Shown piece after piece: positions 1 through 32,531 of a DNA stretch of 32,531 nucleotides. The stretch comes from a virus (Duplodnaviria > Heunggongvirae > Uroviricota > Caudoviricetes). Below the pieces are notes generated by a model. The model was not told where the DNA came from. It saw only the letters and a program-made list of their open reading frames with translations, and did no database searches. The translations under genes were made by a program, and so were the position numbers. Where the stretch lies: IMG/VR virus record IMGVR_UViG_2568526722_000005; one strand, given 5' to 3'. The stretch's first letter is position 1. The number at the start of each line of letters is the position of its first letter.

Positions 1-348
1 CACCGCATCCAGAAAACGGGCGTAAACCTTACGCCGGACCACCGTTCCGCCGACCAGACTCTGCAGATCTTCCGCCATCCCGGTGACCATACCGTACAGG
101 TTAGAAACCGTCAGCGTGGGGCGCGTACTGGTGCCTTTGCCATTCAGTTCAAAACCACTCCCCTGAATGGGATACGGCTGATACTGTCGCCCCTGCCAGG
201 TGACCGGCTCACCTTTTTCGTTCTGCTCATTACAGAAAAAATAACGTTCTCCACCGACCTCTGTCAGATCGATTTCCCAGAGCACCACCAGGGCTGACTG
301 AGTGAGGCGTGTCGTCTCATGATGTGTTTCCTGTGGAATATCCTGCAT
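1..348 (-). CDS. L: Minor tail protein L (lambda gpL-like), N-terminal 116 codons; gene continues past the window start
   Basis: Reverse-strand translation from ATG at 348 gives MQDIPQETHHETTRLTQSALVVLWEIDLTEVGGERYFFCNEQNEKGEPVTWQGRQYQPYPIQGSGFELNGKG..., nearly identical to lambda gpL as I recall it; no stop before the window edge. Confidence 0.85.
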   Translation of the reverse strand, partial: MQDIPQETHHETTRLTQSALVVLWEIDLTEVGGERYFFCNEQNEKGEPVTWQGRQYQPYPIQGSGFELNGKGTSTRPTLTVSNLYGMVTGMAEDLQSLVGGTVVRRKVYARFLDAV

Positions 349-357
349 CAGAGCCTC

Positions 358-687
358 CTATGCCACGACCTGTTCAAAATCTGCCGTTATGGTTACCCAC
401 AGCGCCCCTACGCTCGCCGACCATTTACGACAAACCACCCTGATCGGCTTCCAGTCATAAGGTGGCGTCCACTGAAATGCGCGGACGCCACCGTGCCGTT
501 CCAGAAAGGCTTTTAAAGATGGGTGTTCACATTTACGAACACGTATCGTCACGCTGTAAGTCGACAACTGGTTATTCAGTCCCGCCACACGACGCTGTTC
601 ATAACCATCGCCCAGCTTCACTGTCACCACTTTCGGCTCTGATACCACATTCATATCCGGGCGCACTTTCCAGTGAAACGTCTCCAT
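358..687 (-). CDS. M: Minor tail protein M (lambda gpM-like), 109 aa
   Basis: 109-aa ORF METFHWKVRPDM...FEQVVA with the same length and clear similarity to lambda gpM; located between H and L as in lambda. Confidence 0.9.
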   Translation of the reverse strand: METFHWKVRPDMNVVSEPKVVTVKLGDGYEQRRVAGLNNQLSTYSVTIRVRKCEHPSLKAFLERHGGVRAFQWTPPYDWKPIRVVCRKWSASVGALWVTITADFEQVVA

Positions 688-3600
688 TACCGATATGCTC
701 CACTTAACCGACCACCATCACGGGCCTGCTGTTGCATAAAGTCCGCTGCTGCTTTTTTCCCGAGGTCATAAACCACCTTCAGGGCAGCCGGACCTATCTG
801 CCCGTTCGTGCCATCGTTATTGATCTCTATGTTGTACTGCGGGGCAAACATCGCCATACCTGAACCACCAATATCCGCCACAACCCCCAGCTTACCGTCA
901 GCATCACGACGCAGTGGCAGAATGGCTTCAGGTCCAGCTTCCCCCATCACACCCGCGCCTTTTGCAAAAGCAAAAAACGTCGGACGGTTAACCACCGTGC
1001 CACTGTAACGACTCAAATCAGCAGACTGATAAATCCCCCCATTGGCATTCAGGGAAAGGCTGCTGAGATCAAATCCCAGTACACTGCCAATCCCTTTTAT
1101 CGATTTCATCATGGTTGCCTGCGCCAGGATTTTCGCCATATCTGACAGCACAGAAGAGGTGAAGGATTTGAAATTGAGTTTGCCGGTAGTGACAAAAGTT
1201 GCCAGGCCATTTCCCATGTTGCTGAAGGCTGACGAGAACACCTGTTCTGCTGTTCCTGCCGTATTATCTGCATCCACGGTAAAATCCTGAAATGCACGCA
1301 GGACTCCGTTTTTCCAGTTACCCTGCACAACTTCAAGCTGTTGCCAGTAACGGCGATTCTCATTCAGTTGTCGGTTCAGGCTCTCCGTCAGCGCCTGCTC
1401 GGCCTTTCTGTAGTCATCCGTGTTATATGTCCCTTTCTGCTCACTATCCCGCCTCAACTGCTCCAGCTGTTGCTGGTATTTCTGGCGAAGACTCAGTTGT
1501 ACCTGATATCGCTGCTGCTGCTGATCACCCATACCCACCGTGGCGATATCCAGGTCATGTTGCTGACGCTGAGCGCGCTCTTCTTCAGCCAGTTGACTGG
1601 TCAGCTGAATTGTTTTTTTCTTCAGCTCGTTGAGTGCCGTCTGTTTCTGAAGCTCCTGCTGTTTTACATCCAGCAGCGTCAGTGCCTGAATCAGTTCATC
1701 TTTACGGGCCAGTACACTCTTTTCATCTGCCGTCAGTTTTTTCCCGTCCAGGTCGCTGATGCGCTGCTGCAGAGCCAGAAGCTGTTTATGCGCTTCTGTC
1801 ATCCTTTCCGTGGCAATGCCTGCTGACTGTCTGGCAGCAGCAATCTGTCCTTCCACCTGTGCCTGTTGCTGACTGTACTGCAGCAATAACCGGGTGGCCT
1901 CATCATTACGGGTTTCGCGTGTTTTTTTCTTACCGGATGCCAGGGCTTTCTCGTAACGTTCATTTTCACGTTGTATCGCCGCATCCCTGACAGCCTGATC
2001 GGCGTACTGCATGGCATTAATACGCGCAATTTCACGCTGATGTCGTGCTGCTTCCGTTTCATTCATCCGGTTCAGTACAGCATTTTCAGCATTACGGCGT
2101 TTCTGTTGCTCCTGATAATTCCGCTCTGCCTGCTCTTTTGCATCCTGCAAATCCTTCTGGCGTTTTTTCTCCTGAAGATCGTTAAGACGCTGCTGATCGT
2201 ATTCAACCTGAGAAGATGATGCCGTCCAGGGGAGTCTTTTCGCCCGCGACACTTTCTCCTGTAAAGCGGCAATCTGTTCATCCAGCGAGTCTTCACGACC
2301 AATATTCATGGCCGCATCCCAGAAACGACTCCATAAATCAGACAGATACTTCAGCGTACTGCCCAGCGCATTGAGGTTATTATCAATATCCGCAGTACGC
2401 CGACCGGTTTCCTCTGCCAGTGCAGACATGGCTATCCGTGCCGCATCACTGGACCGCCCCTGATCCCCAAGGACGCGTATCTGCTCAAGCTGAGTGGCAG
2501 TAAGAAAATGCAGCTCATTGTCCAGAGCCTTCGCGGCATTTACAGGATCATCCTTCAGCCGCTTAAACTGATTTATGGTATCGCTGACCGACTGGCCAAC
2601 CGATCGCTCCATCTGTGCGGCAGCTCTCGCCACCATACCGATATCGTTTCCACGAAATGCACCACTCCCCACCACCTGAGCCAGCGCACCGGCTGCAGCA
2701 TGTTGCGTGATACCATTTCCGGAAATAGCACGACTGAGCGTCCACAGCTGCCCGGCAGTGACTCCGGCATAATGCCCCGTCAGTGACAGCTGGCGGTTAA
2801 ATTCTTCCCCCTCCTTCTGACCGTCATACCAGGCTTTACCCAGACCATAGACGGCCGCGGCAATACCGCCAATAACCCCGCCCAGCATCATGCCTTTCGG
2901 TGACATCAGTGTGTCTATCCATCCGGCACGGTTAGCCAGCGTTATCCCGGTTCCCCTCAGCGCTCCTAAATTGCCACGGGCCAGTTCACCTATCAGAACG
3001 CCTATCTCCTGGCGGGCTGCTGCACTTTTCAGACCCAGCGAATGCGTGGCTTTTCCTGCCTGCTCCATTTTGCGGATATACACTTCTGCAGCACTGCTTA
3101 CCCCCAGCTGGGCTGCCCTGGCACGAAGCAACTCAGAAGATGAAAGATTCTGGCGGGTTGCCTGCTCTTTAAGCTGACGGATAAACGCCACTTTCTGTCG
3201 GGTAGCCTCTTCCTCAGCCTGTGTAAGAACACGGGTTTTCGCCGTAACCTCAGAAATCAGCGCCAGATAATCCTGCTGACCAATCCCGCCACTGTTTCTG
3301 GCCTGTCGGACCTGCTGCTGAATACGCTGTAATTCCTGCAGCCCCGCACTGGCCTGTTTCACACTGTCAATCTGACGATAAAACGCAGCAGCCGCTTTAT
3401 CCTGAGCCTCCGCCAGAGCCATGGCCTGCGCCTGTTCCTCACGCATTTTCTGGCTCAGTGCCTCCATGCGCTGGCGGGTTTTCTCCACCTCGCGGGCCAT
3501 GCGTTCATGAGCCTGTGCGTTCTTCTCCACCGTCTGCGCATGGACGGATGCGGCTGTTGCAGCCGAAGAAGCCGCCTGCGTTGTCTGCCGGGCGGCCTGA

Positions 3601-3752
3601 GTCTGACGCTCCATAAAACGCTGCATACGGGCAGAAGACCGTTCTGCATCGCTGGCTGCACCATTCAGAAGGTTTTTGATACGGGGAATTTCATTTTTAA
3701 ACTCTGCCGCATCAATCCCCAAATCAATGACCAGGTTGGCTATCTGGTCCAT
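687..3752 (-). CDS. H: Tail tape measure protein (lambda gpH-like)
   Basis: About 1020-aa ORF; N-terminus (MDQIANLVIDLGIDAAEF) and C-terminus (INNDGTNGQIGPAALKVVYD...RDGG) resemble lambda H; long Q/E/A/R-rich coiled-coil centre. Start chosen at internal Met by alignment to lambda H; longest ORF starts at 3782. Confidence 0.9.
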   Translation of the reverse strand: MDQIANLVIDLGIDAAEFKNEIPRIKNLLNGAASDAERSSARMQRFMERQTQAARQTTQAASSAATAASVHAQTVEKNAQAHERMAREVEKTRQRMEALSQKMREEQAQAMALAEAQDKAAAAFYRQIDSVKQASAGLQELQRIQQQVRQARNSGGIGQQDYLALISEVTAKTRVLTQAEEEATRQKVAFIRQLKEQATRQNLSSSELLRARAAQLGVSSAAEVYIRKMEQAGKATHSLGLKSAAARQEIGVLIGELARGNLGALRGTGITLANRAGWIDTLMSPKGMMLGGVIGGIAAAVYGLGKAWYDGQKEGEEFNRQLSLTGHYAGVTAGQLWTLSRAISGNGITQHAAAGALAQVVGSGAFRGNDIGMVARAAAQMERSVGQSVSDTINQFKRLKDDPVNAAKALDNELHFLTATQLEQIRVLGDQGRSSDAARIAMSALAEETGRRTADIDNNLNALGSTLKYLSDLWSRFWDAAMNIGREDSLDEQIAALQEKVSRAKRLPWTASSSQVEYDQQRLNDLQEKKRQKDLQDAKEQAERNYQEQQKRRNAENAVLNRMNETEAARHQREIARINAMQYADQAVRDAAIQRENERYEKALASGKKKTRETRNDEATRLLLQYSQQQAQVEGQIAAARQSAGIATERMTEAHKQLLALQQRISDLDGKKLTADEKSVLARKDELIQALTLLDVKQQELQKQTALNELKKKTIQLTSQLAEEERAQRQQHDLDIATVGMGDQQQQRYQVQLSLRQKYQQQLEQLRRDSEQKGTYNTDDYRKAEQALTESLNRQLNENRRYWQQLEVVQGNWKNGVLRAFQDFTVDADNTAGTAEQVFSSAFSNMGNGLATFVTTGKLNFKSFTSSVLSDMAKILAQATMMKSIKGIGSVLGFDLSSLSLNANGGIYQSADLSRYSGTVVNRPTFFAFAKGAGVMGEAGPEAILPLRRDADGKLGVVADIGGSGMAMFAPQYNIEINNDGTNGQIGPAALKVVYDLGKKAAADFMQQQARDGGRLSGAYR

Positions 3753-4074
3753 AACGCACACCTCCGGAAATACCTTCCCCAAGATGCATCAGTTCTTCGT
3801 CCGTTCGCTCCGGTATCCCGTTCTCTTCCGGTAAAAGGCTGAAATCAGCCACCGCAGCATCACTGCTACCGGACACCATTCTCACGATCAATGCCTTCAG
3901 CGAGGCAAACTGCGCATCCATCCACACATCACTGAAGCTCTGCATCCGGAAATAATCGCCCCACTCACCAAGCTCAGTGGCCGACATTTCCGACAGCATC
4001 CGCCGCCAGTCTGCCCGCCTGAACTCCCGGGCAAGCCGCATGACAAACTGCATTTCCCGCGTCAGGACTTTTCC
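3724..4074 (-). CDS. T: Tail assembly chaperone T segment, expressed as G-T fusion by -1 frameshift near the end of G
   Basis: ORF in the -1 frame relative to G, overlapping its 3' end; reading through the GGAAAAG run (4068..4074, minus strand) in -1 gives ...VLTREMQFVMRLAREF..., continuous with this ORF. Conserved lambda G/GT arrangement. Confidence 0.75.
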   Translation of the reverse strand, partial: GKVLTREMQFVMRLAREFRRADWRRMLSEMSATELGEWGDYFRMQSFSDVWMDAQFASLKALIVRMVSGSSDAAVADFSLLPEENGIPERTDEELMHLGEGISGGVRYGPDSQPGH

Positions 4075-4448
4075 GGCGTCAGCACCTCATGCTCCAAATC
4101 CCCGGCATTCTCAATGGCTCCCATACCGCTCAGCGACAGAACCATCTCCGCCCCCGCTCCCAGGGCATCATACGACCATGTTGTAATAACGGATGCGCAA
4201 AGCGTCTCAACATCCTGAGACTGTTCCGCATTCCACAGTGAGCGGGAAACCAGCCAGGCATTGATATCCATCCCCATCCGCAGAAAAGCAATCTGTCGTT
4301 CAGCCTCCGGCAGTTCTCCCTCTTCGGCATCAAACTTTGCCGTTCGCTGCTGAACAAACGCCAGATATTCAATTCTCTGCAGCCCGGACAGCTCACTGAG
4401 CACCACGGACTGCTTTTCATAATTAAACGTGCCCTGTTTCAGAAACAT
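4062..4448 (-). CDS. G: Tail assembly chaperone G (lambda gpG-like)
   Basis: ORF starting MFLKQGTFNYEKQSVVLSELSGLQRIEYLAF..., similar to lambda G (MFLKTESF...TLSELSALQRIEHLAL); sits between V and T/H. Confidence 0.85.
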   Translation of the reverse strand: MFLKQGTFNYEKQSVVLSELSGLQRIEYLAFVQQRTAKFDAEEGELPEAERQIAFLRMGMDINAWLVSRSLWNAEQSQDVETLCASVITTWSYDALGAGAEMVLSLSGMGAIENAGDLEHEVLTPEKS

Positions 4449-4508
4449 CATGTTCTCCACCTGCAAAAAAGCCCCGGATAACCGGGGCAAATGATGAGTA
4501 TCGTCCTG

Positions 4509-5258
4509 TTAACCTGCGGCGCTGACAGCCACCGCAGCCACTGCCACAAAATCGCCGTCAGAAGTCATGCCCACAATGCTGACACTGCCCTGCTTCACGC
4601 CTTTCACCGTGGCCACAAGCCCGTTCAGGGTCACCGTGGCAGTCTGTGGATCTGTCGAATGCACACTGATCGCTTTGTCACTGGCTCCGTCAGGTTTTAC
4701 TGTAAAGGTCAGCGTGGTGGTTGCTCCCACTTTTACACTGGCAGATGCCGGTGCCACCGTCAGCCCGGTAACGCTCACTGTTTCAGTGCCTTCCTCTGCC
4801 AGATACGGACGCCCCACACCGCTGATTTTCACTGTGCGGGTCATCACGTCTTTTGAGGCAATGGTTTTACCCAGTGAGCTCAGCCAGCCACGGAAAACAT
4901 CAACAGTGCCGTTGGGATATTTGATACGAAACGCGCAGACTTCACCGGAGTCGAACAACTGAACCAGTTTTTTCTGTCCGCTGTCACCCGGACGCCAGGC
5001 CAGCGTCGCCGAAGTATCACCGACGGATTTCTGCCCCTGTGTTGTCGTTTTCCAGTCTGCATCTTCATCATCGAGATAAGTGTCATCTTCTGCATCAGCG
5101 GTCATTTCGCCAGGTTGCAGATCCTTCACCATCGCAAGACGCAGCCAGTCAGTGTCCGATAAAGGGTTCGCAAACGCATCGCCCTTGCCGGTGTACATCC
5201 AGAACGTCGTTCCCGCACCTTTCGTTTTTGCCAGTGGATTTGGTGTGGTCATTGCCAC
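4509..5258 (-). CDS. V: Major tail protein V with C-terminal Ig-like (Big_2-type) domain
   Basis: 249 aa, size and position as lambda V; C-terminal stretch VSVTGLTVAPASASVKVGATTTLTFTVKPDGASD... is typical of the Ig-like domain of lambda V. Confidence 0.85.
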   Translation of the reverse strand: MAMTTPNPLAKTKGAGTTFWMYTGKGDAFANPLSDTDWLRLAMVKDLQPGEMTADAEDDTYLDDEDADWKTTTQGQKSVGDTSATLAWRPGDSGQKKLVQLFDSGEVCAFRIKYPNGTVDVFRGWLSSLGKTIASKDVMTRTVKISGVGRPYLAEEGTETVSVTGLTVAPASASVKVGATTTLTFTVKPDGASDKAISVHSTDPQTATVTLNGLVATVKGVKQGSVSIVGMTSDGDFVAVAAVAVSAAG

Positions 5259-5263
5259 CTCCT

Positions 5264-5677
5264 TTAATTCGTGTACGTGATCTGGTACGTGATTTCCGCC
5301 ATCGCCCAGGTGGCCATCTCATTATCACGTTGATAGTTAAAACCGAGAGGGATCAGGGTGTCGATGAGTCCGGAAAGTGCCGGTATATCATTCAGAGCCG
5401 GGAAAATGGTGCTCTCCATCCACATATCCAGCTCTGAATCCGGTGCCTGTGCCCGGATGAAGACAGCAATATGCAGAACAGCCTGCCAGTCATCTTCATC
5501 CGTCATTTTTCCGGTGTACTGAGCATCACTCAGCCACACCGCCACGGCAGGCAGTTCCTGCGCATCAATAAATGCCGGAAGCCCGTCAAAAAACGTGGCG
5601 CTGTCTCCACACTGTTCCCGAAGGCGTGCCAGTACGGCCTGGCGGATTTGTGTATGTCGGTTCATCGGGTCAGCCAT
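5264..5677 (-). CDS. U: Tail terminator protein U (lambda gpU-like)
   Basis: 137-aa ORF between Z and V; size and synteny as lambda U. Confidence 0.75.
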   Translation of the reverse strand: MADPMNRHTQIRQAVLARLREQCGDSATFFDGLPAFIDAQELPAVAVWLSDAQYTGKMTDEDDWQAVLHIAVFIRAQAPDSELDMWMESTIFPALNDIPALSGLIDTLIPLGFNYQRDNEMATWAMAEITYQITYTN

Positions 5678-6240
5678 AACCTCAGTTGTTGTTTCAGTGC
5701 ATACCCCAGCTGTTTCGGCATTTCCGCAGCAATGATGCGGTCGCGGGCATCTTCAAATGCCTGTGTCAGCGGTCCGGAAAGCGGGATTTTCACCACATCA
5801 ATGGGGTAACGATTTTTGCCATCAATACGCCGCATCACATGCCAGCGACCATTCGCCAGTTGCTGAATAAACGCATCCCGGAAAAGATATTTACCCACCT
5901 TCAGCACACTGCCACGGTACTGCAGTTTTCCACCACGCCGGGCCAGTCTGACCCGGGCTGTCCCCAGCTTAATGGCGGGCAGATTGCCCCGGTTAACGCG
6001 GATCCTGGCCGTCATTTTTCCTGACGGACTGGCTTTAAACACCCGGACACGCTGACGTACCAGTTTCAGGGGGATCCCTTTCACCTGGTTATCTCCCGCA
6101 ACGGTATTCCCGGCAACCTGCCGGGTGGCAACCGAGACCGCTTTCTGTGCCACACGGTTTATCGCCCATGCGCTGGCCTGTGGCACCATACGGGTATCAA
6201 GGCTGTTCAGATTGCGGATGGCATTCTCAAGCCCCTTCAT
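5662..6240 (-). CDS. Z: Tail completion protein Z (lambda gpZ-like)
   Basis: 192-aa ORF, same length as lambda Z, at the synteny position upstream of U; overlaps the U start. Confidence 0.75.
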   Translation of the reverse strand: MKGLENAIRNLNSLDTRMVPQASAWAINRVAQKAVSVATRQVAGNTVAGDNQVKGIPLKLVRQRVRVFKASPSGKMTARIRVNRGNLPAIKLGTARVRLARRGGKLQYRGSVLKVGKYLFRDAFIQQLANGRWHVMRRIDGKNRYPIDVVKIPLSGPLTQAFEDARDRIIAAEMPKQLGYALKQQLRLWLTR

Positions 6241-6251
6241 CCCACACCTCT

Positions 6252-6527
6252 TTACTCAATAAAGATCATTGGCTTACCGTTAAAACGTTCATGCCGTGTG
6301 ACCGTCCATTGTTGTCCGTCATAAACAACGCGATCCCCGCGCCGTGGGCGGTATCCCGAAGAAAACACCACCAGAGAGACCGCAGGTCCGGACAGAGCAT
6401 TCAGCTCTGCCAGTGTTTCGCCCGGGATCACAGCCATATCGACATCATTAATCGAGGCTGTCTTTCCCATCTTTCTGACCGTGATCGCATCCATACGCGC
6501 TGCCAGCCGGGAAAAGGGATCAGACAT
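6252..6527 (-). CDS. Head-tail connector, FII-like by position
   Basis: 91-aa ORF between the head genes and Z, translationally coupled to the upstream ORF; assignment by synteny only. Confidence 0.45.
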   Translation of the reverse strand: MSDPFSRLAARMDAITVRKMGKTASINDVDMAVIPGETLAELNALSGPAVSLVVFSSGYRPRRGDRVVYDGQQWTVTRHERFNGKPMIFIE

Positions 6528-6843
6528 TGAGTTTTACCGGCACTTCTTCTGCACTGGTTCCGGCATCTGCCCAGACAACCCCGACCAGCGGATCAGAGCC
6601 GCTGTTAGTCAGCTGAACTTTTCCGGACTTCAGATAAACCTTCTTACCCGTTTTCATGTCATCCGTTTTCAGTTTAGGCAGGATAAACACACCTTCGGTC
6701 ATGCCGTCGCCTGTTTCACCCTGTGGAATATCGGTCAGCGCCACCGCAAAAACATCACCCACCTGCACCAGATCTCCGCTGCTGATGGCTGCACTGGCAA
6801 CAATCGCCACCGTTTTTCCTTCTTCTACAAAATTCTTTGCCAT
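6520..6843 (-). CDS. Small head-associated protein (decoration or DNA-stabilisation type), function unassigned
   Basis: 107-aa ORF (MAKNFVEEGKTVAIVASAAISSGDLVQVGDV...) with GGAGA Shine-Dalgarno, immediately downstream of the capsid gene. Confidence 0.4.
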   Translation of the reverse strand: MAKNFVEEGKTVAIVASAAISSGDLVQVGDVFAVALTDIPQGETGDGMTEGVFILPKLKTDDMKTGKKVYLKSGKVQLTNSGSDPLVGVVWADAGTSAEEVPVKLNV

Positions 6844-6886
6844 AACTGTCTCCGCACAGCCCCGTTCAGGGGCTGATTTCAGGTAC

Positions 6887-6905
6887 AAAAAAAGCCCTTA
6901 CGGGC
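6887..6905 (-). terminator. Weak intrinsic terminator or attenuator downstream of the capsid gene
   Basis: Minus strand reads GCCCGTAAGGGC followed by TTTTTTT; 4-bp GC stem plus U-run just after the capsid stop. Confidence 0.3.
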
Positions 6906-6929
6906 CATCAGAGTTGTTGTCTGCGACGT

Positions 6930-21182: not shown

Positions 21183-21183
21183 G

Positions 21184-23930: not shown

Positions 23931-24353
23931 TCACAGTACCGCCTCCTGAAAATTACCCTGATAGAAAGCCAGTACACGCTGCATAGCTTCACTCTTCCGG
24001 CACTCGCGACAGATTATGTTTAGACGACTGTCGTAGCGACGTATTTCTCCATCAGGTAACGACCAGATAAGGTCCGGATCAACCACAGCTGTTTTCTTCA
24101 CCTTTGCCCTCGAGAGTTTTTTGCGGGCGTTTTGCCAGTCCTTACGCGCCTGTTCAGACGGGAATAACCCGTAGCCGGAGTTGTATACATCGCCACTGGC
24201 TACCAGCTCTCTGGCAAGAACGCTCATCAGATATCTAGTCGCACCTGTTTTAGCTTCCAGTTGCCGTAACGTCTCACGACCGCTCTGGCGCACGAGTTCC
24301 ACCACCTGCCCTTTAATTTTTTCCCGCTCTTCTTGTGTAAAAACTTTTGCCAC
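23931..24353 (-). CDS. Hypothetical 140-aa protein downstream of the replication initiator
   Basis: ORF MAKVFTQEEREKIKGQVVELVRQSG... co-directional with and 40 nt downstream of the O-like gene; no recognised similarity. Confidence 0.5.
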   Translation of the reverse strand: MAKVFTQEEREKIKGQVVELVRQSGRETLRQLEAKTGATRYLMSVLARELVASGDVYNSGYGLFPSEQARKDWQNARKKLSRAKVKKTAVVDPDLIWSLPDGEIRRYDSRLNIICRECRKSEAMQRVLAFYQGNFQEAVL

Positions 24354-24393
24354 AAGTCCCCCTTAAAATTACCTCATGACCTGAAATCAAAAC

Positions 24394-25362: not shown

Positions 25363-25861
25363 TCCATCCAGCTTTTTGTTGGTATTGCTGTCGATACGCA
25401 AGTTTGAAAGCAATTGCTTTTTCTATAAGTTCGTCAGTTTCACGATCCACTACGGCAGGATCAGCAAAAAGCAGTCCGGATTCCACCACATCGCCATATT
25501 CTTTGTTTAACCCGGCGATCATGTACGTGATGCTTTTTCCGTCACTAATTTCACGATACAACCTGAAATCATTAATCCGGATAGCCTCCATAATTGCAGG
25601 CACTAGCGCCGTGAACTTTTCACGCTTATCCCTGGTGTCGATAGCCTTCCAGCGTTCGAATATCTTCACTCGATTAACGCCAAGCGCTCGCTGATCAACC
25701 GCGCCACCTTCATCTGTGACACGCTGAACATCGATGTTCGGGCGCTCTTTCAAAGCCCAGAATGCTTCAGTGATTAATATCGTCGCCTGCTCCTGTGTCA
25801 TTCCTGGTCGACATATCCAGGCATCCAGAGCCTCACGAGCCTGTTCAGGAGTGATTTTCAT
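25340..25861 (-). CDS. YdaT/CII-like early protein (hypothetical regulator), 173 aa
   Basis: ORF immediately downstream of the Cro-like gene, the position occupied by ydaT in Rac-type prophages; assignment by synteny only. Confidence 0.4.
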   Translation of the reverse strand: MKITPEQAREALDAWICRPGMTQEQATILITEAFWALKERPNIDVQRVTDEGGAVDQRALGVNRVKIFERWKAIDTRDKREKFTALVPAIMEAIRINDFRLYREISDGKSITYMIAGLNKEYGDVVESGLLFADPAVVDRETDELIEKAIAFKLAYRQQYQQKAGWNYEPSFC

Positions 25862-26072
25862 TGTTCAACCGCCCCGCCCGCTTCGTCTTACGATATTCGT
25901 CATAAACCTTGGGATCATACAGAAGCTCGCCGCCAGATGCCTCCTGTAGACGCATCGCGCGACCTTCAGGAACCAGCTCTTGCCATTGAGAAACAGCAGA
26001 TGGGTCAACGCCAGCAGCTTTCGCTACTTTGGCTTTCGTACCGTAAAAATTAATTACGTCTGATTTAAACAT
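25845..26072 (-). CDS. dicC: Cro-like HTH regulator (DicC-type)
   Basis: About 75-aa protein with a Cro-type HTH segment (NFYGTKAKVAKAAGVDPSAVSQWQELVPEGRAMRLQEASGGEL); divergent from the dicA-like repressor; GGAGG Shine-Dalgarno. Confidence 0.75.
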   Translation of the reverse strand: MFKSDVINFYGTKAKVAKAAGVDPSAVSQWQELVPEGRAMRLQEASGGELLYDPKVYDEYRKTKRAGRLNNENHS

Positions 26073-26083
26073 CGCACCTCCAG

Positions 26084-26101
26084 CATTGAGTTTTCTCAAT
26101 G
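26084..26101. promoter_or_regulatory. Operator palindrome in the dicC/dicA divergent promoter region
   Basis: Perfect 7-4-7 palindrome CATTGAG-TTTT-CTCAATG between the two divergent start codons. Confidence 0.55.
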
Positions 26102-26149
26102 CTAATCACTCAAGGAATCTCAAGTCAAGGGTTATTAAGATATCTAAAT

Positions 26150-26557
26150 ATGAACGAGAAAACTTTAGGTCAACGCATTAGAGAAAGACGTAAGCAGGTA
26201 GGCTTAAGTCAAAACGGTTTAAGCAAAGCTGCTGGCGTATCTGGCTCATCAATTTCATTATGGGAAAGTGACCATACAGCCCCGCGCGGGCAAAATTTGC
26301 ATCGCCTCGCCGAGGTATTGCAATGTTCACCAACCTGGATACTGTTTGGCGACGAGGACAAAACACCAGCTCCCCCTGTTTCACTCGATAGTGCCTTAGA
26401 CTTATCGGAAGATGAGTTAGAGATGCTGCGTTTGTATCGCGCACTTCCTAAATCAGAGCAACAAGCACAACTCAGCGAACTCCGCGCCCGCGTTGAGAAT
26501 TTTAATCGCCTGTTCACCGAGCTATTAGAGGCTCGCAAACGCAACAAGCATCAATAA
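26150..26557 (+). CDS. dicA: XRE-family HTH repressor, DicA-like
   Basis: 135-aa protein MNEKTLGQRIRERRKQVGLSQNGLSKAAGVSGSSISLWESDHTAPRGQNLHRLAEVLQCSPTWILFGDEDK... closely resembles K-12 DicA. Confidence 0.85.
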   Translation: MNEKTLGQRIRERRKQVGLSQNGLSKAAGVSGSSISLWESDHTAPRGQNLHRLAEVLQCSPTWILFGDEDKTPAPPVSLDSALDLSEDELEMLRLYRALPKSEQQAQLSELRARVENFNRLFTELLEARKRNKHQ

Positions 26558-26621
26558 TCATCCCTTCACAAAATTTTAAAGCCTTACATTTCAATGTATT
26601 GGCTTTATCTTGCGCCAATAC

Positions 26622-26673
26622 TTGAGTTTTCTCATCAAAAAGCCTTGACGAAAAATAATGAGAAAACTAAATT
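26622..26673 (+). promoter_or_regulatory. Candidate dicB-operon promoter with two further copies of the operator motif
   Basis: TTGAGTTTTCTCA at 26622..26634; TTGACG -35 (26645..26650), 17-nt spacer, TAAATT -10 (26668..26673); inverted operator-like TGAGAAAACTAA (26659..26670) overlapping the spacer and -10. Confidence 0.45.
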
Positions 26674-26749
26674 ACCTCCATCAACACACCGCACGGTGTT
26701 CTCAGCAAACAGTTCCGCTACCCCGGCGTTAAGGGGAAATGAGGTCAGC

Positions 26750-26902
26750 ATGGATACTATCGATCTTGGCAACAGCGAATCTCTGGTATGTGGCGTGTTC
26801 CCCAACCAGGACGGTACGTTCACCGCGATGACATATACCAAAAGCAAAACGTTTAAAACCGAATCTGGCGCGCGTTGCTGGTTAGCCAGAAACACTGACT
26901 GA
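26750..26902 (+). CDS. ydfA: YdfA-like small protein, 50 aa
   Basis: MDTIDLGNSESLVCGVFPNQDGTFTAMTYTKSKTFKTESGARCWLARNTD closely resembles K-12 YdfA; GAGG Shine-Dalgarno. Confidence 0.75.
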   Translation: MDTIDLGNSESLVCGVFPNQDGTFTAMTYTKSKTFKTESGARCWLARNTD

Positions 26903-26913
26903 TGAGGCTGACG

Positions 26914-27279
26914 ATGGAATTTAAAGATTTACCGTCTGATGTACAGAAAACAGCAGCTCATACATTGCATTCTGTGCTGCGAGAAATCGGGAAAGATATT
27001 GCAAGCGAGCCAGCAAAAGATCTGGCCCGGAAAATCAAGACCGCTTTCGTTGAGCTTTATAATGTTGGCACTGACTCTGAAACTGTCGAGACCAAGACCG
27101 TAAGTTCACCAATATTCTCACTTGAGCCAGGCGTATTAGCAGGTGAAATATGCACCGAGATTTCCAGCGAACTGCTTCCGGTAATACGAGAAGCAATTTG
27201 CCGTCGCGGTTTGGATGGAAGTTACGATCATGACGTCCTGCAAGTTCTCAGGACAATGGTGACTTCACTGGGGATTTGA
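26914..27279 (+). CDS. Hypothetical 121-aa protein in the dicB operon (ydfB/ydfC position)
   Basis: ORF MEFKDLPSDVQKTAAHTLHSVLREIG... with GAGG Shine-Dalgarno, translationally close to ydfA. Confidence 0.5.
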   Translation: MEFKDLPSDVQKTAAHTLHSVLREIGKDIASEPAKDLARKIKTAFVELYNVGTDSETVETKTVSSPIFSLEPGVLAGEICTEISSELLPVIREAICRRGLDGSYDHDVLQVLRTMVTSLGI

Positions 27280-27448
27280 TCCCTGCGTCCTCTAACCTTT
27301 TGATATAGCGGTCCTCCAAGAAGCGGTAAATTTTGTCGAAATCATCTTTCCCCTCTGGTTTATTCAGAGGATTACAGGACCCGTAAGTAGCGGCATACAT
27401 TTCAACCGTTTTATCAAAAATATAAGAGACAAATTCTTCTTTAGTCAT
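27248..27448 (-). CDS. Hypothetical 66-aa protein, antisense within the dicB operon
   Basis: MTKEEFVSYIFDKTVEMYAATYGSCNPLNKPEGKDDFDKIYRFLEDRYIKRLEDAGIKSPVKSPLS; AAGGA Shine-Dalgarno 8 nt upstream; convergent with the upstream plus-strand ORF and overlapping its 3' end. Confidence 0.4.
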   Translation of the reverse strand: MTKEEFVSYIFDKTVEMYAATYGSCNPLNKPEGKDDFDKIYRFLEDRYIKRLEDAGIKSPVKSPLS

Positions 27449-27723
27449 ATAGATTTCCTTCTTGGTTATTCGGGATAAGAAGGATACCACCTCGCCTGAC
27501 GTGGTTAAAAGCAGGCACACAACACGAAAGCGCACGGCGAAGTTCGTCTCACTGTACGGTGTCGTTAAATTTAATTCGACCGTGCGCTTCCGGTTGTGGC
27601 AACCCGCGAAATGGCGCGGCGGTAAGTATGGCGGGGTTATTCCTTCCCCGTTGAGGACACCGAGTTGTCAGGTTGACCATACGCTTAAGTGACAACCCCG
27701 CTGCAACGCCCTCTGTTATCAAT

Positions 27724-27780
27724 TTTCTGGTGACGTTTGGCGGTATCAGTTTTACTCCGTGACTGCTCTGCCGCCGTTTT
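27724..27780 (+). ncRNA. dicF: DicF small regulatory RNA
   Basis: TTTCTGGTGACGTTTGGCGGTATCAGTTTTACTCCGTGACTGCTCTGCCGCC followed by GTTTTT matches the K-12 DicF sRNA as I recall it; located between the ydfABC-like genes and dicB as in Qin; preceded by a highly structured region. Confidence 0.85.
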
Positions 27781-27950
27781 TAAAGTGAATTTTGTGATGC
27801 GGTGAATGCGGCTAAGCGCACGCGGAACAGTTAAAACCAAAAACAGTGTTATGGGTGGATTCTCTGTATCCGGCGTTAATTGTTAACTGGTTAACGTCAC
27901 CTGGAGGCACCAGGCACTGCATCACAAAATTCATTGTTGAGGACGCGATA

Positions 27951-28139
27951 ATGAAAACGTTATTACCAAACGTTAATACGTCTGAAGGTTGTTTTGAAAT
28001 TGGTGTCACTATCAGTAACCCTGTATTTACTGAAGATGCCATTAACAAGAGAAAACAAGAACGGGAGCTATTAAATAAAATATGCATTGTTTCAATGCTG
28101 GCTCGTTTACGTCTGATGCCAAAAGGATGTGCACAATGA
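27951..28139 (+). CDS. dicB: Cell-division inhibitor DicB, 62 aa
   Basis: MKTLLPNVNTSEGCFEIGVTISNPVFTEDAINKRKQERELLNKICIVSMLARLRLMPKGCAQ matches K-12 DicB. Confidence 0.9.
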   Translation: MKTLLPNVNTSEGCFEIGVTISNPVFTEDAINKRKQERELLNKICIVSMLARLRLMPKGCAQ

Positions 28140-28327
28140 ATTCAGCATTTGCGCTTGTTCTGACAGTTTTTCTTGTTTCCGGAGAGCCAGTTGATATTGC
28201 AGTCAGTGTTCACAAGACAATGCAGGAGTGTATGACTGCAGCAACCGAACAGAAAATTCCCGGTAACTGTTACCCGGTCGATAAAGTTATTCACCAGGAT
28301 AATATCGAAATCCCGGCAGGTCTTTAA
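28136..28327 (+). CDS. ydfD: YdfD-like small membrane/lysis protein, 63 aa
   Basis: MNSAFALVLTVFLVSGEPVDIAVSVHKTMQECMTAATEQKIPGNCYPVDKVIHQDNIEIPAGL matches K-12 YdfD; start overlaps the dicB stop (ATGA). Confidence 0.85.
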   Translation: MNSAFALVLTVFLVSGEPVDIAVSVHKTMQECMTAATEQKIPGNCYPVDKVIHQDNIEIPAGL

Positions 28328-28420
28328 AACAGTTCCGTAATAAATATCCGGTTTCATTCTTATATGCCAGCAATGGCAGGGATTTGTTCATCCTTAAATC
28401 TGTCATGAGGTTAAAACAAA

Positions 28421-30892
28421 ATGAGTAAAGTCTTTATTTGCGCCGCTATTCCTGACGAACTGGCAACAAGGGAAGAAGGCGCTGTGGCTGTAGCCACAGC
28501 CATTGAAGCTGGCGACGAACGCCGTGCTCGAGCAAAATTTCACTGGCAGTTCCTGGAACATTATCCGGCTGCTCAGGACTGCGCTTATAAATTTATTGTC
28601 TGCGAGGATAAACCTGGCATACCCCGCCCTGCCCTCGATTCATGGGATGCTGAATATATGCAGGAAAACCGCTGGGATGAGGAGTCTGCTTCTTTTGTCC
28701 CGGTTGAGACTAAATCCGATCCGATGAACGTCACTTTTGACAAGCTGGCCCCTGAAGTACAGAACGCTGTCATGGTTAAGTTCGACACATGTGAAAACAT
28801 CACCGTTGATATGGTTATTAGCGCACAGGAATTGTTGCAGGAAGACATGGCAACATTCGACGGACATATCGTTGAAGCGTTGATGAAAATGCCAGAAGTT
28901 AACGCCATGTTTCCGGAGCTTAAGTTGCACGCCATTGGGTGGGTTAAGCATAAATGTATTCCTGGTGCTAAATGGCCCGAAATTCAGGCAGAGATGCGCA
29001 TCTGGAAAAAACGTCGCGAAGGTGAACGCAAGGAAACCGGAAAATACACGTCTGTTGTTGATCTCGCCCGCACCAGAGCCAATCAACAGTACACTGAAAA
29101 TTCAACAGGAAAAATCAGCCCGGTCATTGCTGCCATTCATCGCGAATACAAGCAGACATGGAAAACACTGGATGACGAACTGGCCTACGCTCTCTGGCCT
29201 GGTGATGTGGATGCCGGAAACATTGACGGCAGCATCCATCGCTGGGCAAAAAAAGAAGTTATCGACAACGACCGCGAAGACTGGAAGCGTATCTCGGCAT
29301 CAATGCGCAAACAGCCTGATGCCCTTCGCTACGCCCGCCAAACTATTTTTGGCCTTGTCCGTGAGCGTCCGATCGACATTCACAAAGATCCCGTAGCACT
29401 GAACAAATATATCTGCGAATACCTGACGACAAAGGGCGTGTTTGAGAATGAAGAAACAGACCTGGGCACTGTTGATGTTCTCCAGTCATCAGAAACACAA
29501 ACTGATGCAGTGGAAACTGAGGTATCTGATATCCCAAAAAATGAAACCGCGCCGGAAGCTGAACCATCTGTAGAGCGTGAGGGGCCGTTCTATTTCCTCT
29601 TCGCAGATAAGGACGGAGAAAAATACGGTCGCGCAAACAAACTTTCTGGTCTGGATAAGGCACTGGCTGCTGGCGCCACTGAAATCACAAAAGAAGAATA
29701 TTTTGCCCGAAAAAATGGCACATACACGGGCTTACCGCAAAATGTAGATACCGCTGAAGATTCAGAACAACCAGAACCGATAAAAGTTACCGCTGACGAA
29801 GTAAACAAAATTATGCAGGCAGCCAATATCAGCCAGCCTGACGCCGATAAGTTGCTTGCTGCATCACGTGGTGAATTTGTTGAAGGGATTAGTGACCCGA
29901 ATGATCCGAAATGGGTTAAGGGGATCCAGACCCGCGATTCTGTGAACCAGAACCAGCATGAATCGGAACGGAACTACCAAAAAGCGGAACAAAACAGCCC
30001 AAATGCGTTACAAAACGAGCCAGAAACGAAACAGCCTGAACCAGTGGCGCAACAGGAAGTGGAAAAAGTCTGCACCGCCTGCGGTCAGACCGGCGGCGGC
30101 AACTGCCCTGATTGTGGCGCGGTGATGGGCGACGCAACATACCAAGAAACATTCGATGAAGAGTATCAGGTTGAAGTTCAGGAAGATGATCCGGAGGAAA
30201 TGGAAGGCGCTGAACATCCACACAAGGAGAACACTGGCGGCAATCAGCATCACAATAGCGATAATGAAACTGGCGAGACGGCAGATCACTCAATTAAGGT
30301 GAACGGTCATCACGAAATCACATCCACTAGCAGGACGTGTGACCATCTAATGATCGACCTTGAAACCATGGGAAAAAATCCTGATGCCCCGATCATCTCA
30401 ATAGGTGCAATATTTTTCGATCCGCAAACCGGAGATATGGGACCGGAATTTAGTAAGACTATCGATCTGGAAACTGCTGGCGGAGTCATTGATCGGGACA
30501 CCATTAAATGGTGGCTTAAGCAATCACGCGAAGCGCAATCTGCCATTATGACCGATGAAATCCCGTTAGATGATGCACTGTTACAATTGCGGGAATTTAT
30601 CGACGAAAACTCCGGTGAATTTTTTGTTCAGGTTTGGGGAAATGGAGCCAACTTCGACAACACGATTTTGCGCCGTTCATACGAACGGCAGGGGATCCCC
30701 TGCCCGTGGCGTTACTACAACGATCGCGATGTACGCACAATCGTTGAGCTGGGGAAAGCCATAGACTTCGATGCCAGAACGGCTATTCCATTCGAAGGTG
30801 AGCGCCATAATGCACTTGATGACGCCCGTTACCAGGCAAAATACGTTTCAGTTATCTGGCAAAAACTGATCCCGAGTCAGGCTGATTCTTAA
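28421..30892 (+). CDS. RecE/YdfE-like 823-aa protein with C-terminal DnaQ-like (DEDDh) 3'-5' exonuclease domain and internal zinc-ribbon motif
   Basis: N-terminal and central regions resemble RecE/YdfE-family prophage proteins (segment KLLAASRGEFVEGISDPNDPKWVKGIQTRD recalled from RecE); C-terminal about 200 aa carry exo motifs MIDLET, WGNGANFD and HNALDDARYQ; CTACGQTGGGNCPDCG Cys4 motif at about 30060..30125. Confidence 0.75.
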   Translation: MSKVFICAAIPDELATREEGAVAVATAIEAGDERRARAKFHWQFLEHYPAAQDCAYKFIVCEDKPGIPRPALDSWDAEYMQENRWDEESASFVPVETKSDPMNVTFDKLAPEVQNAVMVKFDTCENITVDMVISAQELLQEDMATFDGHIVEALMKMPEVNAMFPELKLHAIGWVKHKCIPGAKWPEIQAEMRIWKKRREGERKETGKYTSVVDLARTRANQQYTENSTGKISPVIAAIHREYKQTWKTLDDELAYALWPGDVDAGNIDGSIHRWAKKEVIDNDREDWKRISASMRKQPDALRYARQTIFGLVRERPIDIHKDPVALNKYICEYLTTKGVFENEETDLGTVDVLQSSETQTDAVETEVSDIPKNETAPEAEPSVEREGPFYFLFADKDGEKYGRANKLSGLDKALAAGATEITKEEYFARKNGTYTGLPQNVDTAEDSEQPEPIKVTADEVNKIMQAANISQPDADKLLAASRGEFVEGISDPNDPKWVKGIQTRDSVNQNQHESERNYQKAEQNSPNALQNEPETKQPEPVAQQEVEKVCTACGQTGGGNCPDCGAVMGDATYQETFDEEYQVEVQEDDPEEMEGAEHPHKENTGGNQHHNSDNETGETADHSIKVNGHHEITSTSRTCDHLMIDLETMGKNPDAPIISIGAIFFDPQTGDMGPEFSKTIDLETAGGVIDRDTIKWWLKQSREAQSAIMTDEIPLDDALLQLREFIDENSGEFFVQVWGNGANFDNTILRRSYERQGIPCPWRYYNDRDVRTIVELGKAIDFDARTAIPFEGERHNALDDARYQAKYVSVIWQKLIPSQADS

Positions 30893-30964
30893 TGTTCAAC
30901 TGTCGCCGGTTGTGACTGGTATTCTGCAACCGGCGCTCGTCTGATGTAAGAGATAAAGAAATCG

Positions 30965-31216
30965 ATGAGCGAAGTAATCATGATTGTCTCTCCCGGCAAA
31001 TGGGTATCCGAAGAGCAGTTAATTGCGCTGAAAGGAATAAAAAAAGGTACGTTAAAAAAGGCCCGGGAAAAATCGTTTATGGAAGGAAGGGAATATAAGC
31101 ATGTCGCTCATGACGGTATGCCATGGGATAACAGTCCATGCTTTTACAACCTGGAAGAAATTGATCGCTGGATTGAGCGCCAGGCATCAGCGAGACCAAG
31201 ACGTCATCTTACTTGA
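30965..31216 (+). CDS. xis: Excisionase-like protein (lambda Xis family-like)
   Basis: 83-aa protein immediately upstream of the integrase with a W...GREY-containing segment reminiscent of lambda Xis. Confidence 0.65.
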   Translation: MSEVIMIVSPGKWVSEEQLIALKGIKKGTLKKAREKSFMEGREYKHVAHDGMPWDNSPCFYNLEEIDRWIERQASARPRRHLT

Positions 31217-31250
31217 CTAAAAGCCACACTAACTAATGAGAGAAGTTGAA

Positions 31251-32531
31251 ATGAAATATCCGACAGGCGTGGAAAACCATGGAGGGAAATTACGTATCTG
31301 GTTTGTTTATAAAGGCGTAAGAGTCAGGGAAAATCTGGGGGTTCCTGACACAGCAAAAAACAGGCGCGTTGCAGGTGAACTACGCTCCTCTGTTTGTTAC
31401 GCAATAAAAACTGGTGTTTTCGACTATGCAAAACAGTTTCCCTCCTCACGCAATCTGGAAAAATTTGGTGAGGCCCGACAAGATTTAACCATAAAAGAAC
31501 TGGCTGAAAAATTTCTGGCACTGAAAGAAAATGAAGTCGCCAAAACATCACTCAACACATACCGTGCCGTCATCAAAAATATCCTGAGCATAATCGGTGA
31601 AAAAAATCTTGCCTCATCGATTAATAAAGAAAAATTACTGGAGGTTCGTAAAGAGCTACTGACTGGATACCAGATCCCCAAAAGTAACTATATTGTTACA
31701 CAACCAGGGAGATCGGCTGTAACTGTAAATAATTACATGACAAATCTTAACGCCGTGTTCCAGTTTGGTGTTGATAACGGTTACCTGGCAGATAATCCGT
31801 TTAAGGGGATCTCGCCATTAAAGGAATCAAGAACCATTCCGGATCCTCTTTCGCGGGAGGAATTTATCCGTCTTATCGATGCGTGCAGAAATCAGCAAGC
31901 AAAAAATTTATGGTGTGTTTCTGTTTATACTGGCGTTCGCCCTGGTGAGCTGTGTGCACTTGGATGGGAGGACATAGATCTGAAAAATGGAACAATGATG
32001 ATCAGGAGAAATTTAGCAAAAGACCGTTTCACGGTACCAAAAACACAGGCGGGAACCAATCGGGTCATTCATCTTATTAAGCCAGCAATCGACGCTCTCC
32101 GGAGTCAGATGACATTAACGAGACTGAGTAAAGAGCATATCATTGATGTTCACCTCAGAGAGTATGGCAGAACAGAAAAACAAAAATGCACCTTTGTTTT
32201 TCAACCTGAAGTGTCAGCGAGAGTAAAAAATTATGGTGACCATTTTACCGTTGACTCAATAAGGCAGATGTGGGACGCAGCGATAAAACGTGCCGGACTC
32301 CGCCATCGAAAATCATATCAGTCGAGACATACTTATGCCTGCTGGTCGCTGACAGCTGGTGCTAACCCCGCATTTATAGCAAACCAGATGGGCCATGCAG
32401 ATGCGCAAATGGTATTTCAGGTATACGGAAAATGGATGTCTGAAAACAATAATGCACAGGTAGCTTTGTTAAATACACAGTTAAGCGAGTTTGCCCCAAC
32501 CATGCCCCATAACGAAGCAATAAAAAATTAA
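31251..32531 (+). CDS. int: Tyrosine integrase (lambda Int family)
   Basis: About 426 aa with tyrosine-recombinase catalytic region (TGVRPGE, RHTYA, C-terminal Tyr); ends at the window edge with TAA; start taken at the second ATG, which has the better Shine-Dalgarno. Confidence 0.9.
   Translation: MKYPTGVENHGGKLRIWFVYKGVRVRENLGVPDTAKNRRVAGELRSSVCYAIKTGVFDYAKQFPSSRNLEKFGEARQDLTIKELAEKFLALKENEVAKTSLNTYRAVIKNILSIIGEKNLASSINKEKLLEVRKELLTGYQIPKSNYIVTQPGRSAVTVNNYMTNLNAVFQFGVDNGYLADNPFKGISPLKESRTIPDPLSREEFIRLIDACRNQQAKNLWCVSVYTGVRPGELCALGWEDIDLKNGTMMIRRNLAKDRFTVPKTQAGTNRVIHLIKPAIDALRSQMTLTRLSKEHIIDVHLREYGRTEKQKCTFVFQPEVSARVKNYGDHFTVDSIRQMWDAAIKRAGLRHRKSYQSRHTYACWSLTAGANPAFIANQMGHADAQMVFQVYGKWMSENNNAQVALLNTQLSEFAPTMPHNEAIKN

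Follow-up and report, generated by a model that had tools for sequence, protein, structure and literature searches.

The decayed Qin prophage of Escherichia coli K-12 codes for a repressor, DicA, which lacks a RecA cleavage site and is inactivated by the antirepressor Rem, leading to derepression (PMC10448788). The genes dicB, dicF, dicAC and rem are also carried by mEp460_ev081, a functional temperate phage from infant faecal viromes (PMC10448788), and spontaneously induced, plaque-forming temperate coliphages, including the mEp460 type, have been recovered (PMC6969025). The idea of a functional Qin-like phage is thus not new. Here we have analyzed a stretch of 32,531 bases from the IMG/VR virus record IMGVR_UViG_2568526722_000005, referred to in its full length as the window, and found it to be a single contiguous segment of a lambdoid prophage that begins inside tail gene L and extends as far as the stop codon of int, the integrase gene. 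In gene content, this element is a gene-complete counterpart to K-12 Qin, which has decayed. Its kind is already known, as it is annotated in hundreds of genomes, near-identical phages have been deposited and the literature already includes a functional Qin-like phage.

Strain EC20-72C-1 (NZ_AP026961.1) carries the closest sequence, a prophage that is 99.2% identical and collinear with the window apart from insertion sequence (IS) elements and a deletion. Among 5426 complete E. coli genomes, 343 have matches to 80% or more of the window's first 25 kb, and the best matches in this collection, which apparently does not include the source genome, reach 99.2-99.9% over parts. Two phage genomes provide the most extensive reference: HannyBb (PP925841.1, 45.3 kb) matches positions 1-16779, 20133-22341, 23929-26893 and 27480-32531 at 97-99.5%, about 80% of the window, and mEp460_ev081 (LR597641.1) matches 1-12622, 13408-16779, 20140-22341 and 23949-32531 at 93-98%, with 96% identity over the shared blocks as a whole. 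Both phages share with the window the gene order from terminase to int, the DicA-type repressor, Rem, DicC, the pair of O and DUF977 genes, the arm dicF-dicB-ydfD-exonuclease-xis-int, the cspI/gnsB island, Rz, the lysozyme and the core of the attachment (att) site. All 40-odd genes with a counterpart in either phage are of full length and have no internal stop codon, with amino acid identities of 87-100%; the exceptions are the terminase subunits of mEp460_ev081, tail protein Z (80% to HannyBb) and the allele of a DUF1327 gene, and note that the mEp460_ev081 match to DUF977 stops 7 residues short. The overall plan is that of a lambdoid phage, with the order cos-terminase-head-tail and int-xis-early left-repressor/cro-replication-nin-Q-lysis collinear with lambda, HannyBb and mEp460_ev081, and with both a divergent repressor/cro pair and a Q-type antiterminator (HTH_3 and Phage_antitermQ domains; dicC is annotated as Cro/CI family in relatives). 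We therefore consider it highly likely that the window holds a prophage of the HannyBb/mEp460_ev081 type that is gene-complete as far as the window reaches. It differs from the two phages in the Q gene (125 amino acids and QuuD-like in the window, a 250-residue or other type in the phages), in a blc gene with an IS3 between Q and the holin gene, in a different nin-like block (22342-23928), in a replaced segment between holin and lysozyme genes (16780-17275) and, with respect to HannyBb, in the ydfB/C segment.

Most morphogenesis, lysis, late and replication genes lie on the minus strand and the early-left arm lies on the plus strand; a tRNA scan found no tRNA gene in the window. The initial annotation had placed all modules of a functional phage inside the window. 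This did not hold: the start of the window cuts tail gene L, its last base is that of the int stop codon, and the remainder of L together with the genes K, I, J, lom, stf (side tail fibre), tfa and pin (invertase) lies to the left of position 1, a part of about 13.5 kb as judged from relatives, and both att sites lie beyond the window. Completeness can thus not be asserted from the window alone, because tail tip, fibres and att sites are outside. The whole lambdoid temperate prophage is estimated at 44 kb, with the window of some 32.5 kb making up about three quarters. If the unseen part matches that of EC20-72C-1, the genome would measure about 43.7 kb, near the 45.3 kb of HannyBb.

The structural and packaging genes read as follows.

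1-348, minus strand: minor tail protein L, N-terminal 116 codons only, 93% amino acid identity to L of lambda and HannyBb
358-687, minus strand: tail gene M, full length
687-3752, minus strand: tape measure gene H, full length
3724-4053, minus strand: tail gene T, full length
4062-4448, minus strand: tail gene G, full length
4509-5252, minus strand: major tail gene V, full length
5264-5665, minus strand: tail gene U, full length
5662-6240, minus strand: tail gene Z, full length (Pfam Minor_tail_Z)
6252-6527, minus strand: head-tail connector of the Gifsy-2 family (Pfam Gifsy-2)
6520-6843, minus strand: cement/decoration protein (Pfam Phage_cement_2)
6930-8957, minus strand: fusion of a ClpP protease and the major capsid protein (Pfam CLP_protease and Phage_capsid_4)
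8902-10410, minus strand: portal protein, a remote match to lambda (22%)
10410-10622, minus strand: W-like adaptor of the head module
10619-12718, minus strand: terminase large subunit, 99% to HannyBb and 88% to mEp460_ev081, which has another type
12727-13254, minus strand: terminase small subunit (Pfam DUF1441), 100% to HannyBb and 42% to mEp460_ev081, which has another type
13439-13450, minus strand: putative cosN, with GGGCGGGAGCGT on this strand and a predicted cut site

Apart from the Z protein, the tail shaft module (358-6240) is 93-100% identical in amino acid sequence to HannyBb and mEp460_ev081, and the head module (6252-10622) is 98-100% identical to both. The morphogenesis genes had been described as GC-rich and lambda-like. 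Their content of guanine plus cytosine (GC), their order and their tail genes bear this out, but the head and packaging genes do not, as these are of the type of phages cdtI and mEp460, with a protease-capsid fusion in the head, and the lambda type is limited to the tail. Amino acid identities to the lambda tail proteins are 93% for L, 56% for M, 55% for V, 54% for U, 50% for Z, 38% for T, 33% for G and 25% for H. In contrast, the large terminase subunit (24%) and the portal are only remote matches, the portal being the sole protein of the head module with any match in lambda; the small terminase subunit has none, nor do the protease-capsid fusion, the cement protein and the head-tail connectors. 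Phage cdtI is 98.0% identical in nucleotide sequence across positions 1-13450, up to its cos end, and the first base of its record corresponds exactly to window position 13450. The record opens with GGGCGGGAGCGT, which is likely to be the cohesive end; the left cohesive end of lambda, GGGCGGCGACCT, resembles it. The cos region (13255-13816) is 98.2% identical to that of HannyBb. The early and lysis regions of cdtI are largely unrelated to the window.

Two observations concern single genes of this block. The overlap of G and T (4050-4075, minus strand) reads ...CCGGAAAAGTCCTGA and does not show the canonical slippery heptamer GGGAAAG found at the overlap in lambda; the isolated phages share G and T with the window at 93-100% identity. 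The portal reading frame comprises 502 amino acids in the window, in HannyBb and in mEp460_ev081, and is annotated 11 codons shorter at the C-terminus in EC20-72C-1 (18935-20410). EC20-72C-1 also keeps the full L gene (9650-10348 in its extracted segment).

The lysis genes, the Q gene and the interval between them contain the features that set this copy apart.

15742-16239, minus strand: Rz (PHROG Rz-like spanin)
within 15792-16088, minus strand: Rz1, embedded in Rz, with lipobox LTSC and nearly identical to K-12 RzoQ
16236-16769, minus strand: lysozyme of family GH24 with an N-terminus resembling a signal-anchor-release (SAR) domain (Pfam Phage_lysozyme; Protein Data Bank matches 3hde and 4zpu)
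16897-17193, plus strand: antisense accessory open reading frame (ORF) of 98 amino acids (phrog_25324; no Pfam match)
17218-17436, minus strand: short DUF1327 (ydfR-like) gene (Pfam DUF1327)
17441-17656, minus strand: S21-type holin (Pfam PF04971 Phage_holin_2_1 'P21 holin S', E = 2e-34)
17714/17715, no strand: junction of a deletion of about 2.3 kb, with a helix-turn-helix (HTH) gene and a YbgA-family gene missing
17797-19582, plus strand: accessory gene of a Blc-type lipocalin lipoprotein, antisense to the late operon, in two parts (17797-17907 and 19166-19582)
17908-19165, minus strand: IS3 of 1258 bp, 100% identical to K-12 IS3C
17938-18804, minus strand: orfB within IS3
18801-19109, minus strand: orfA within IS3
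19639-19616, minus strand: terminator-like hairpin in the position of tR', about 100 nucleotides downstream of Q (terminator scan)
19738-20115, minus strand: Q antiterminator of 125 amino acids (Pfam Phage_antitermQ, E = 7e-51; 86% to QuuD of DLP12)

When rejoined, the two halves of blc encode the 174-residue lipocalin of EC20-72C-1, and the IS3 splits the gene after codon 37. The element has the ends TGATCCTACCC... and TGATCTTACCC..., a 3-bp target duplication AAC, orfA and orfB, and the size of an IS3. In the IS-free arrangement, found in strain IBS28, the HTH gene and the YbgA-family gene lie between holin and blc, and EC20-72C-1 likewise keeps both genes and an intact blc. The junction at 17714/17715 joins position 27715 of the EC20-72C-1 segment to position 31299. 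This junction was found in none of the 5426 complete E. coli genomes, and the junction of IS3 and blc had no single-piece match in them; because neither was contiguous in the collection, both are private to this genome. The IS3 and the 2.3-kb deletion are confined to accessory genes between Q and holin, so that the gene set of the window is consistent with a phage that works. The initial annotation had recognized the IS3-disrupted moron as the only obvious lesion. The insertion in blc stands, but the deletion has to be added, as does the DUF1327 gene, whose product is C-terminally short, with 72 residues against 103 in K-12 YdfR and HannyBb. None of these changes, nor the pseudogenes of the nin-like block, falls in a gene that phage growth is known to require, and as private features of this copy the IS3 in blc and the accessory deletion are trivial.

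The endpoints of the deletion, GGAAAGAA|AGTAGGAAAG, have only a short GGAAAG-type repeat in common and the IS3 is not located at the junction; the event therefore looks like a simple illegitimate deletion, not an IS-mediated one. The interval from Q to holin (17700-19740) serves this family of prophages as a landing zone for IS elements. An IS5 about 35 bp downstream of Q and an IS3 at a different site are present in EC20-72C-1, and in other genomes an IS2, IS1203 or ISApl1 is annotated somewhere in the matched prophage, with several having IS3-family ends a few hundred bp from blc. The segment 19583-19737, to which a putative PR'/qut may be assigned, is 100% identical to strain IBS28. The junction of Q and blc occurs in many isolated lambda-like phages, among them IdasGreatGrand (96.7%), 1H12 and the Lambda_ev series. 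PhiR47_1 was considered as a carrier of the window's Q gene and rejected, as it has the 250-residue Q type.

The lysis genes had been called phage 21-like. This is correct for the holin, which has a dual start MKSMDK as read from the sequence and is 94% identical to EssD of DLP12, and for the general design of the cassette. Lysozyme and Rz, however, are by their matches of the Qin type, and the likeness to phage 21 and DLP12 is limited to holin, Q gene and lysis design. Although residues 12-174 of the lysozyme align with the structure of the phage 21 enzyme (3hde, E = 2e-16), its identity is 95% to RrrQ of Qin and only 34% to RrrD, the 21-type enzyme of DLP12. The N-terminus is rich in Ala and Gly and appears SAR-like by eye. 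Between the lysozyme gene and the holin side, the segment with the antisense ORF (16780-17275) replaces the 3' third of the DUF1327 gene; this ORF is present in the closest prophages and absent from HannyBb, mEp460_ev081 and K-12.

The genes that would govern lysogeny and replication lie to the right of Q.

20133-21182, minus strand: ydfU (DUF968/HNH-like; Pfam DUF968)
21184-21462, minus strand: small ORF between ydfU and rem
21529-21780, minus strand: homologue of the antirepressor gene rem, product 100% identical to that of both HannyBb and mEp460_ev081, 96% to K-12 Rem
21997-22152, minus strand: hokD, adjoining sok
22147-22321, minus strand: sok RNA (Rfam, 108 bits)
22331-23930, minus strand: nin-like block of small ORFs, 42% GC
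23931-24353, minus strand: DUF977 'Ren-like' protein of the replication module
24394-25359, minus strand: O-like initiator (PHROG 391 'replication initiation O-like', E = 3e-92)
24861-24896: triple repeat of 12 bp, adjoining the iterons
24900-25038: origin-like iterons within the O gene, about 5-6 internally palindromic copies with a spacing of 23-24 bp
25340-25861, minus strand: YdaT/CII-like gene
25845-26072, minus strand: dicC/cro-like gene, product 70% to K-12 DicC and 99-100% to HannyBb/mEp460_ev081
26150-26557, plus strand: dicA-like repressor gene (longest ORF from 26099; Pfam HTH_3 only)

The immunity and division cassette had been described as Qin-like. This applies to dicF-dicB-ydfD, but the repressor is a different allele, 100% identical to those of HannyBb and mEp460_ev081 and only 57% to K-12 DicA. 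Its C-terminal half is conserved with K-12 DicA (...VLQCSPTWILFGDEDK...; K-12 segment 19935-20342) and the N-terminal HTH half is divergent, suggesting a different operator specificity beside a conserved part for interaction with Rem or for dimerisation. With this allele and its divergent HTH half, the phage is therefore probably heteroimmune to K-12 Qin. A Pfam search of the repressor returned HTH_3 only and no S24 peptidase domain. Exact matches to the LexA box CTGT-N8-ACAG are absent from the window; with one mismatch there are 13, where 10 are expected, and none lies in the region upstream of rem (21781-21996). The LexA-box search hence provides no evidence for SOS control of rem or of the switch. 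With an HTH-only repressor and no LexA box near rem, a release of lysogeny through Rem is to be expected. That a still-active Qin-type phage leaves lysogeny only in this way, through Rem acting on a non-cleavable DicA-type repressor, is a tentative proposal to which we give rather less than an even chance.

In the replication module, the iterons have a consensus near CATCGGGCCATTTTGACCCGATG and are followed by three tandem 12-mers TATTCTCTGTAG. HannyBb and mEp460_ev081 share this region at 98% identity, and as lambda also has its origin inside O with iterons and repeat arranged likewise, the iterons may by analogy act as the origin. After O there is only the DUF977 gene and no gene for a P-like or DnaC-like helicase loader, an arrangement also present in the isolated phages. 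The nin-like block is 98.4% identical throughout to phages vB_EcoS-640R1 and 813R8. With respect to lambda, the window lacks the lambda-type head as well as N, P, Exo/Bet/Gam and a cleavable CI.

By homology to these systems the life cycle might proceed as follows. The short, HTH-only repressor of the DicA type would hold the divergent early promoters shut, and as RecA cleavage is not expected, derepression would come about through the Rem antirepressor. Rightward early transcription would then lead to the Cro-like DicC, the YdaT/CII-like protein and the O-type initiator, which would act on the iterons in its own gene, and would go on to cross the nin-like block, hok/sok and rem before reaching Q. 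The Q protein would load RNA polymerase at a promoter lying shortly downstream of the Q gene, and the modified polymerase would pass tR', the antisense blc gene and the IS3 to enter the genes for pinholin, SAR lysozyme and Rz/Rz1; late transcription would continue into cos and terminase, the head genes of the cdtI/mEp460 type and the lambda-type tail genes. Leftward early transcription would yield DicF, DicB, YdfD, the exonuclease, Xis and Int.

Whether such a cycle still runs to completion is the question on which the readings of the element divide. We estimate a probability of about 0.55 that the whole element still yields infectious particles, a value held down by the quarter of the element that is unseen and by the IS3 in the late operon. 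The strongest competing explanation, which we regard as a serious one at somewhat less than even odds, is that the prophage only looks intact and is in fact cryptic, be it through a lesion outside the window, through polarity of the IS3, through the private deletion or for lack of a signal that induces Rem and relieves DicA. Several points weigh on that side. The unseen quarter comprises the tail tip, the fibres and both att sites; the IS3 lies between the Q-dependent promoter and all late genes and could be polar if antitermination were inefficient; the deletion is unique among the complete genomes. Two small genes of the nin-like block are degraded and are flagged as pseudogenes in RefSeq relatives too, and HannyBb is known from a GenBank phage record only. 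In addition, relatives at the same locus gather IS elements (IS5, IS3, IS2, ISApl1, IS1203), which suggests that many copies are decaying. On the other hand, the essential genes in the window are undamaged, and the regulatory DNA, namely cos, the iterons, the intergenic regions of the immunity module, the region upstream of rem and that downstream of Q, is 96-100% identical to phages or to the closest prophages. For the immunity module the values are 96-97% between dicC and dicA and 98.4% between dicA and ydfA, and the rem upstream region is 99.5-100% identical to HannyBb/mEp460_ev081. Polymerase modified by lambda Q ignores terminators, and a terminator scan found no terminator-like site inside the IS3 on the late strand; a Q-modified polymerase would thus be expected to read through it.

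The second alternative concerns descent, in that the phage might be unrelated to Qin and might have obtained dicB, cspI, gnsB and hokD through lambdoid mosaicism, residing at another site. To weigh this, the early-left arm and the integration site have to be considered.

26750-26902, plus strand: ydfA, dicBF operon
26902-27279, plus strand: ydfB/C-like ORF, dicBF operon
27725-27776, plus strand: DicF small RNA (Rfam, 72.5 bits)
27951-28139, plus strand: dicB, product 100% to K-12 DicB
28136-28327, plus strand: ydfD, product 97% to K-12 YdfD
28421-30892, plus strand: exonuclease of 823 amino acids, 99% to HannyBb
30965-31216, plus strand: excisionase gene xis, adjoining int
31236 or 31251 to 32531, plus strand: tyrosine integrase of the IntQ type

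K-12 Qin (MG1655 1,632,277-1,652,745) aligns to only 26% of the window, in eight separate blocks of 82-99% identity, the repressor allele differs as described, and the window's own flanks are not visible, all of which would fit a phage of separate origin. The blocks, however, are collinear and have the same order and orientation as in the window. Nucleotide identities are 92% for gnsB-cspI-Rz-lysozyme, 94% for ydfU-rem-hokD, 98% for the ydfX/dicC block, 98% for dicF-dicB-ydfD with the 5' end of the exonuclease gene (98.0% over the stretch 27507-29187) and 99.3% over 1160 nucleotides for int, corresponding to 97% of the amino acids encoded by the truncated intQ. Three K-12 genes are truncated forms of genes in the window, namely ydfE of the exonuclease gene, ydfX of the ydaT-like gene and intQ of int: ydfE comprises exonuclease residues 1-256 only, its gene having lost the last two thirds and been cut by an IS2, and intQ lacks its first 35 codons. 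Furthermore, K-12 Qin has no head and tail block, no O gene with origin, no xis and no 5' end of int, and carries relBE, flxA and cspB/cspF instead.

The att sites point in the same direction. A search with a 12-mer seed on the ends of the relative found nothing; the 11-bp core GAAATCCATAA was obtained with a shorter seed in K-12 and confirmed elsewhere. It is present at both annotated ends of K-12 Qin, in ydfJ, and flanks the EC20-72C-1 prophage on either side; HannyBb and mEp460_ev081 each contain it once, in their attP next to int, and the arms of the phage attP are the phage-side sequences at the two junctions of K-12 Qin. The check for attL and attR proposed at the outset thus found the core in relatives, K-12 Qin and phage attP; the window itself does not contain it, and in relatives the int-side copy is located 38 bp past the point where the window ends. 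The EC20-72C-1 prophage resides between a 5'-truncated ydfJ and rspB, where K-12 Qin lies. With int, att core, arms and the ydfJ/rspB locus in common, these elements belong to the same phage lineage using the same site, and the element of the window is almost certainly inserted in ydfJ next to rspB, like Qin. An origin apart from Qin is accordingly improbable, and the initial annotation of a gene-complete, mosaic relative of Qin that may be an active phage is upheld by the identity to HannyBb/mEp460_ev081, by IntQ, by the att core and by the relative at ydfJ/rspB. Of the two other K-12 prophages proposed for comparison, DLP12 is alike in holin and Q, and Rac contributes scraps only, the identities being 84% for ydfA/ydaF, 39% for the middle of RecE and 42% for Int.

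The least probable explanation, an assembly artefact that collapsed or joined several lambdoid prophages residing in the same genome, could appeal to the median of 7 places per E. coli genome that match the query, which makes misjoins possible, and to the unique 17714/17715 junction, but barring IS3 and deletion the window is collinear with independent complete genomes and two phage genomes, the IS3 has a clean target duplication and no reading frame is broken at block boundaries.

The exonuclease of the early-left arm is a composite protein. Its C-terminal 180 residues form a DEDD 3'-5' domain similar to Rv2179c (E = 2e-67) and not the RecE nuclease, and residues 262-625 are similar to the middle part of Rac RecE, which is non-catalytic (39%). 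Recombination of the RecE/RecT type was considered and rejected, given the DEDD domain, the match to the RecE middle only and the lack of a RecT or Bet partner.

The mosaic character of the element is also apparent from its composition and is real, well beyond chance. In 500-bp windows the standard deviation of the GC content is 0.056, whereas in 200 shuffled sequences it averages 0.022 and does not exceed 0.027, so that the sliding-window analysis called for at the beginning confirmed the compositional breaks. Structural genes (1-13254) have a GC content of 53.5% and the remainder of 45.6%, and the lowest values fall at module junctions, in agreement with the initial description of AT-rich accessory islands at these positions. 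Four such islands are seen.

13817-15741: 36.1% GC, between packaging and lysis
16770-17440: 37.9% GC, within the lysis cassette
19166-19737: 41.1% GC, between Q and holin
22331-23930: 42.0% GC, nin-like region

The first of these contains the cspI island.

13817-14023, minus strand: ybcW-like ORF, 68 amino acids, no counterpart in K-12 Qin
14319-14492, minus strand: gnsB, accessory
14665-14895, minus strand: ynfN, accessory
14968-15156, minus strand: ynfQ, accessory
15121-15536, minus strand: cspA thermoregulator ahead of cspI (Rfam, 111 bits)
15167-15379, minus strand: cspI, with the thermoregulator in its 5' untranslated region

Products of the accessory island (13817-15741) are 98-100% identical to HannyBb/mEp460_ev081 and 93-100% to K-12 Qin. 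The ybcW-like ORF, which lies upstream of the cos region, shares 79% identity with an unnamed lambda ORF (47738-47944) and with ybcW of DLP12 and is among the few non-tail stretches that align to lambda DNA (82.6%).

The value of the element lies mainly in annotation. It shows K-12 Qin as it would have been before decay, when head, tail, O with its origin, xis and parts of int and of the exonuclease gene were lost, and dicBF, rem, hokD, cspI and the lysis genes were kept. It also presents an intact DicA/Rem/DicC switch in its phage context, a context already pointed out for mEp460_ev081. As the repressor consists of an HTH domain without an S24 peptidase domain, a test with mitomycin C may mislead, and this compound is probably the wrong inducer to use. 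If the element is indeed a still-active phage released through Rem, host and phage would form a natural pair in which the physiological trigger of Rem, and hence of DicB and DicF expression, could be traced by way of phage production, and the IS3 in its late operon would show that Q antitermination tolerates a 1.26-kb insertion sequence.

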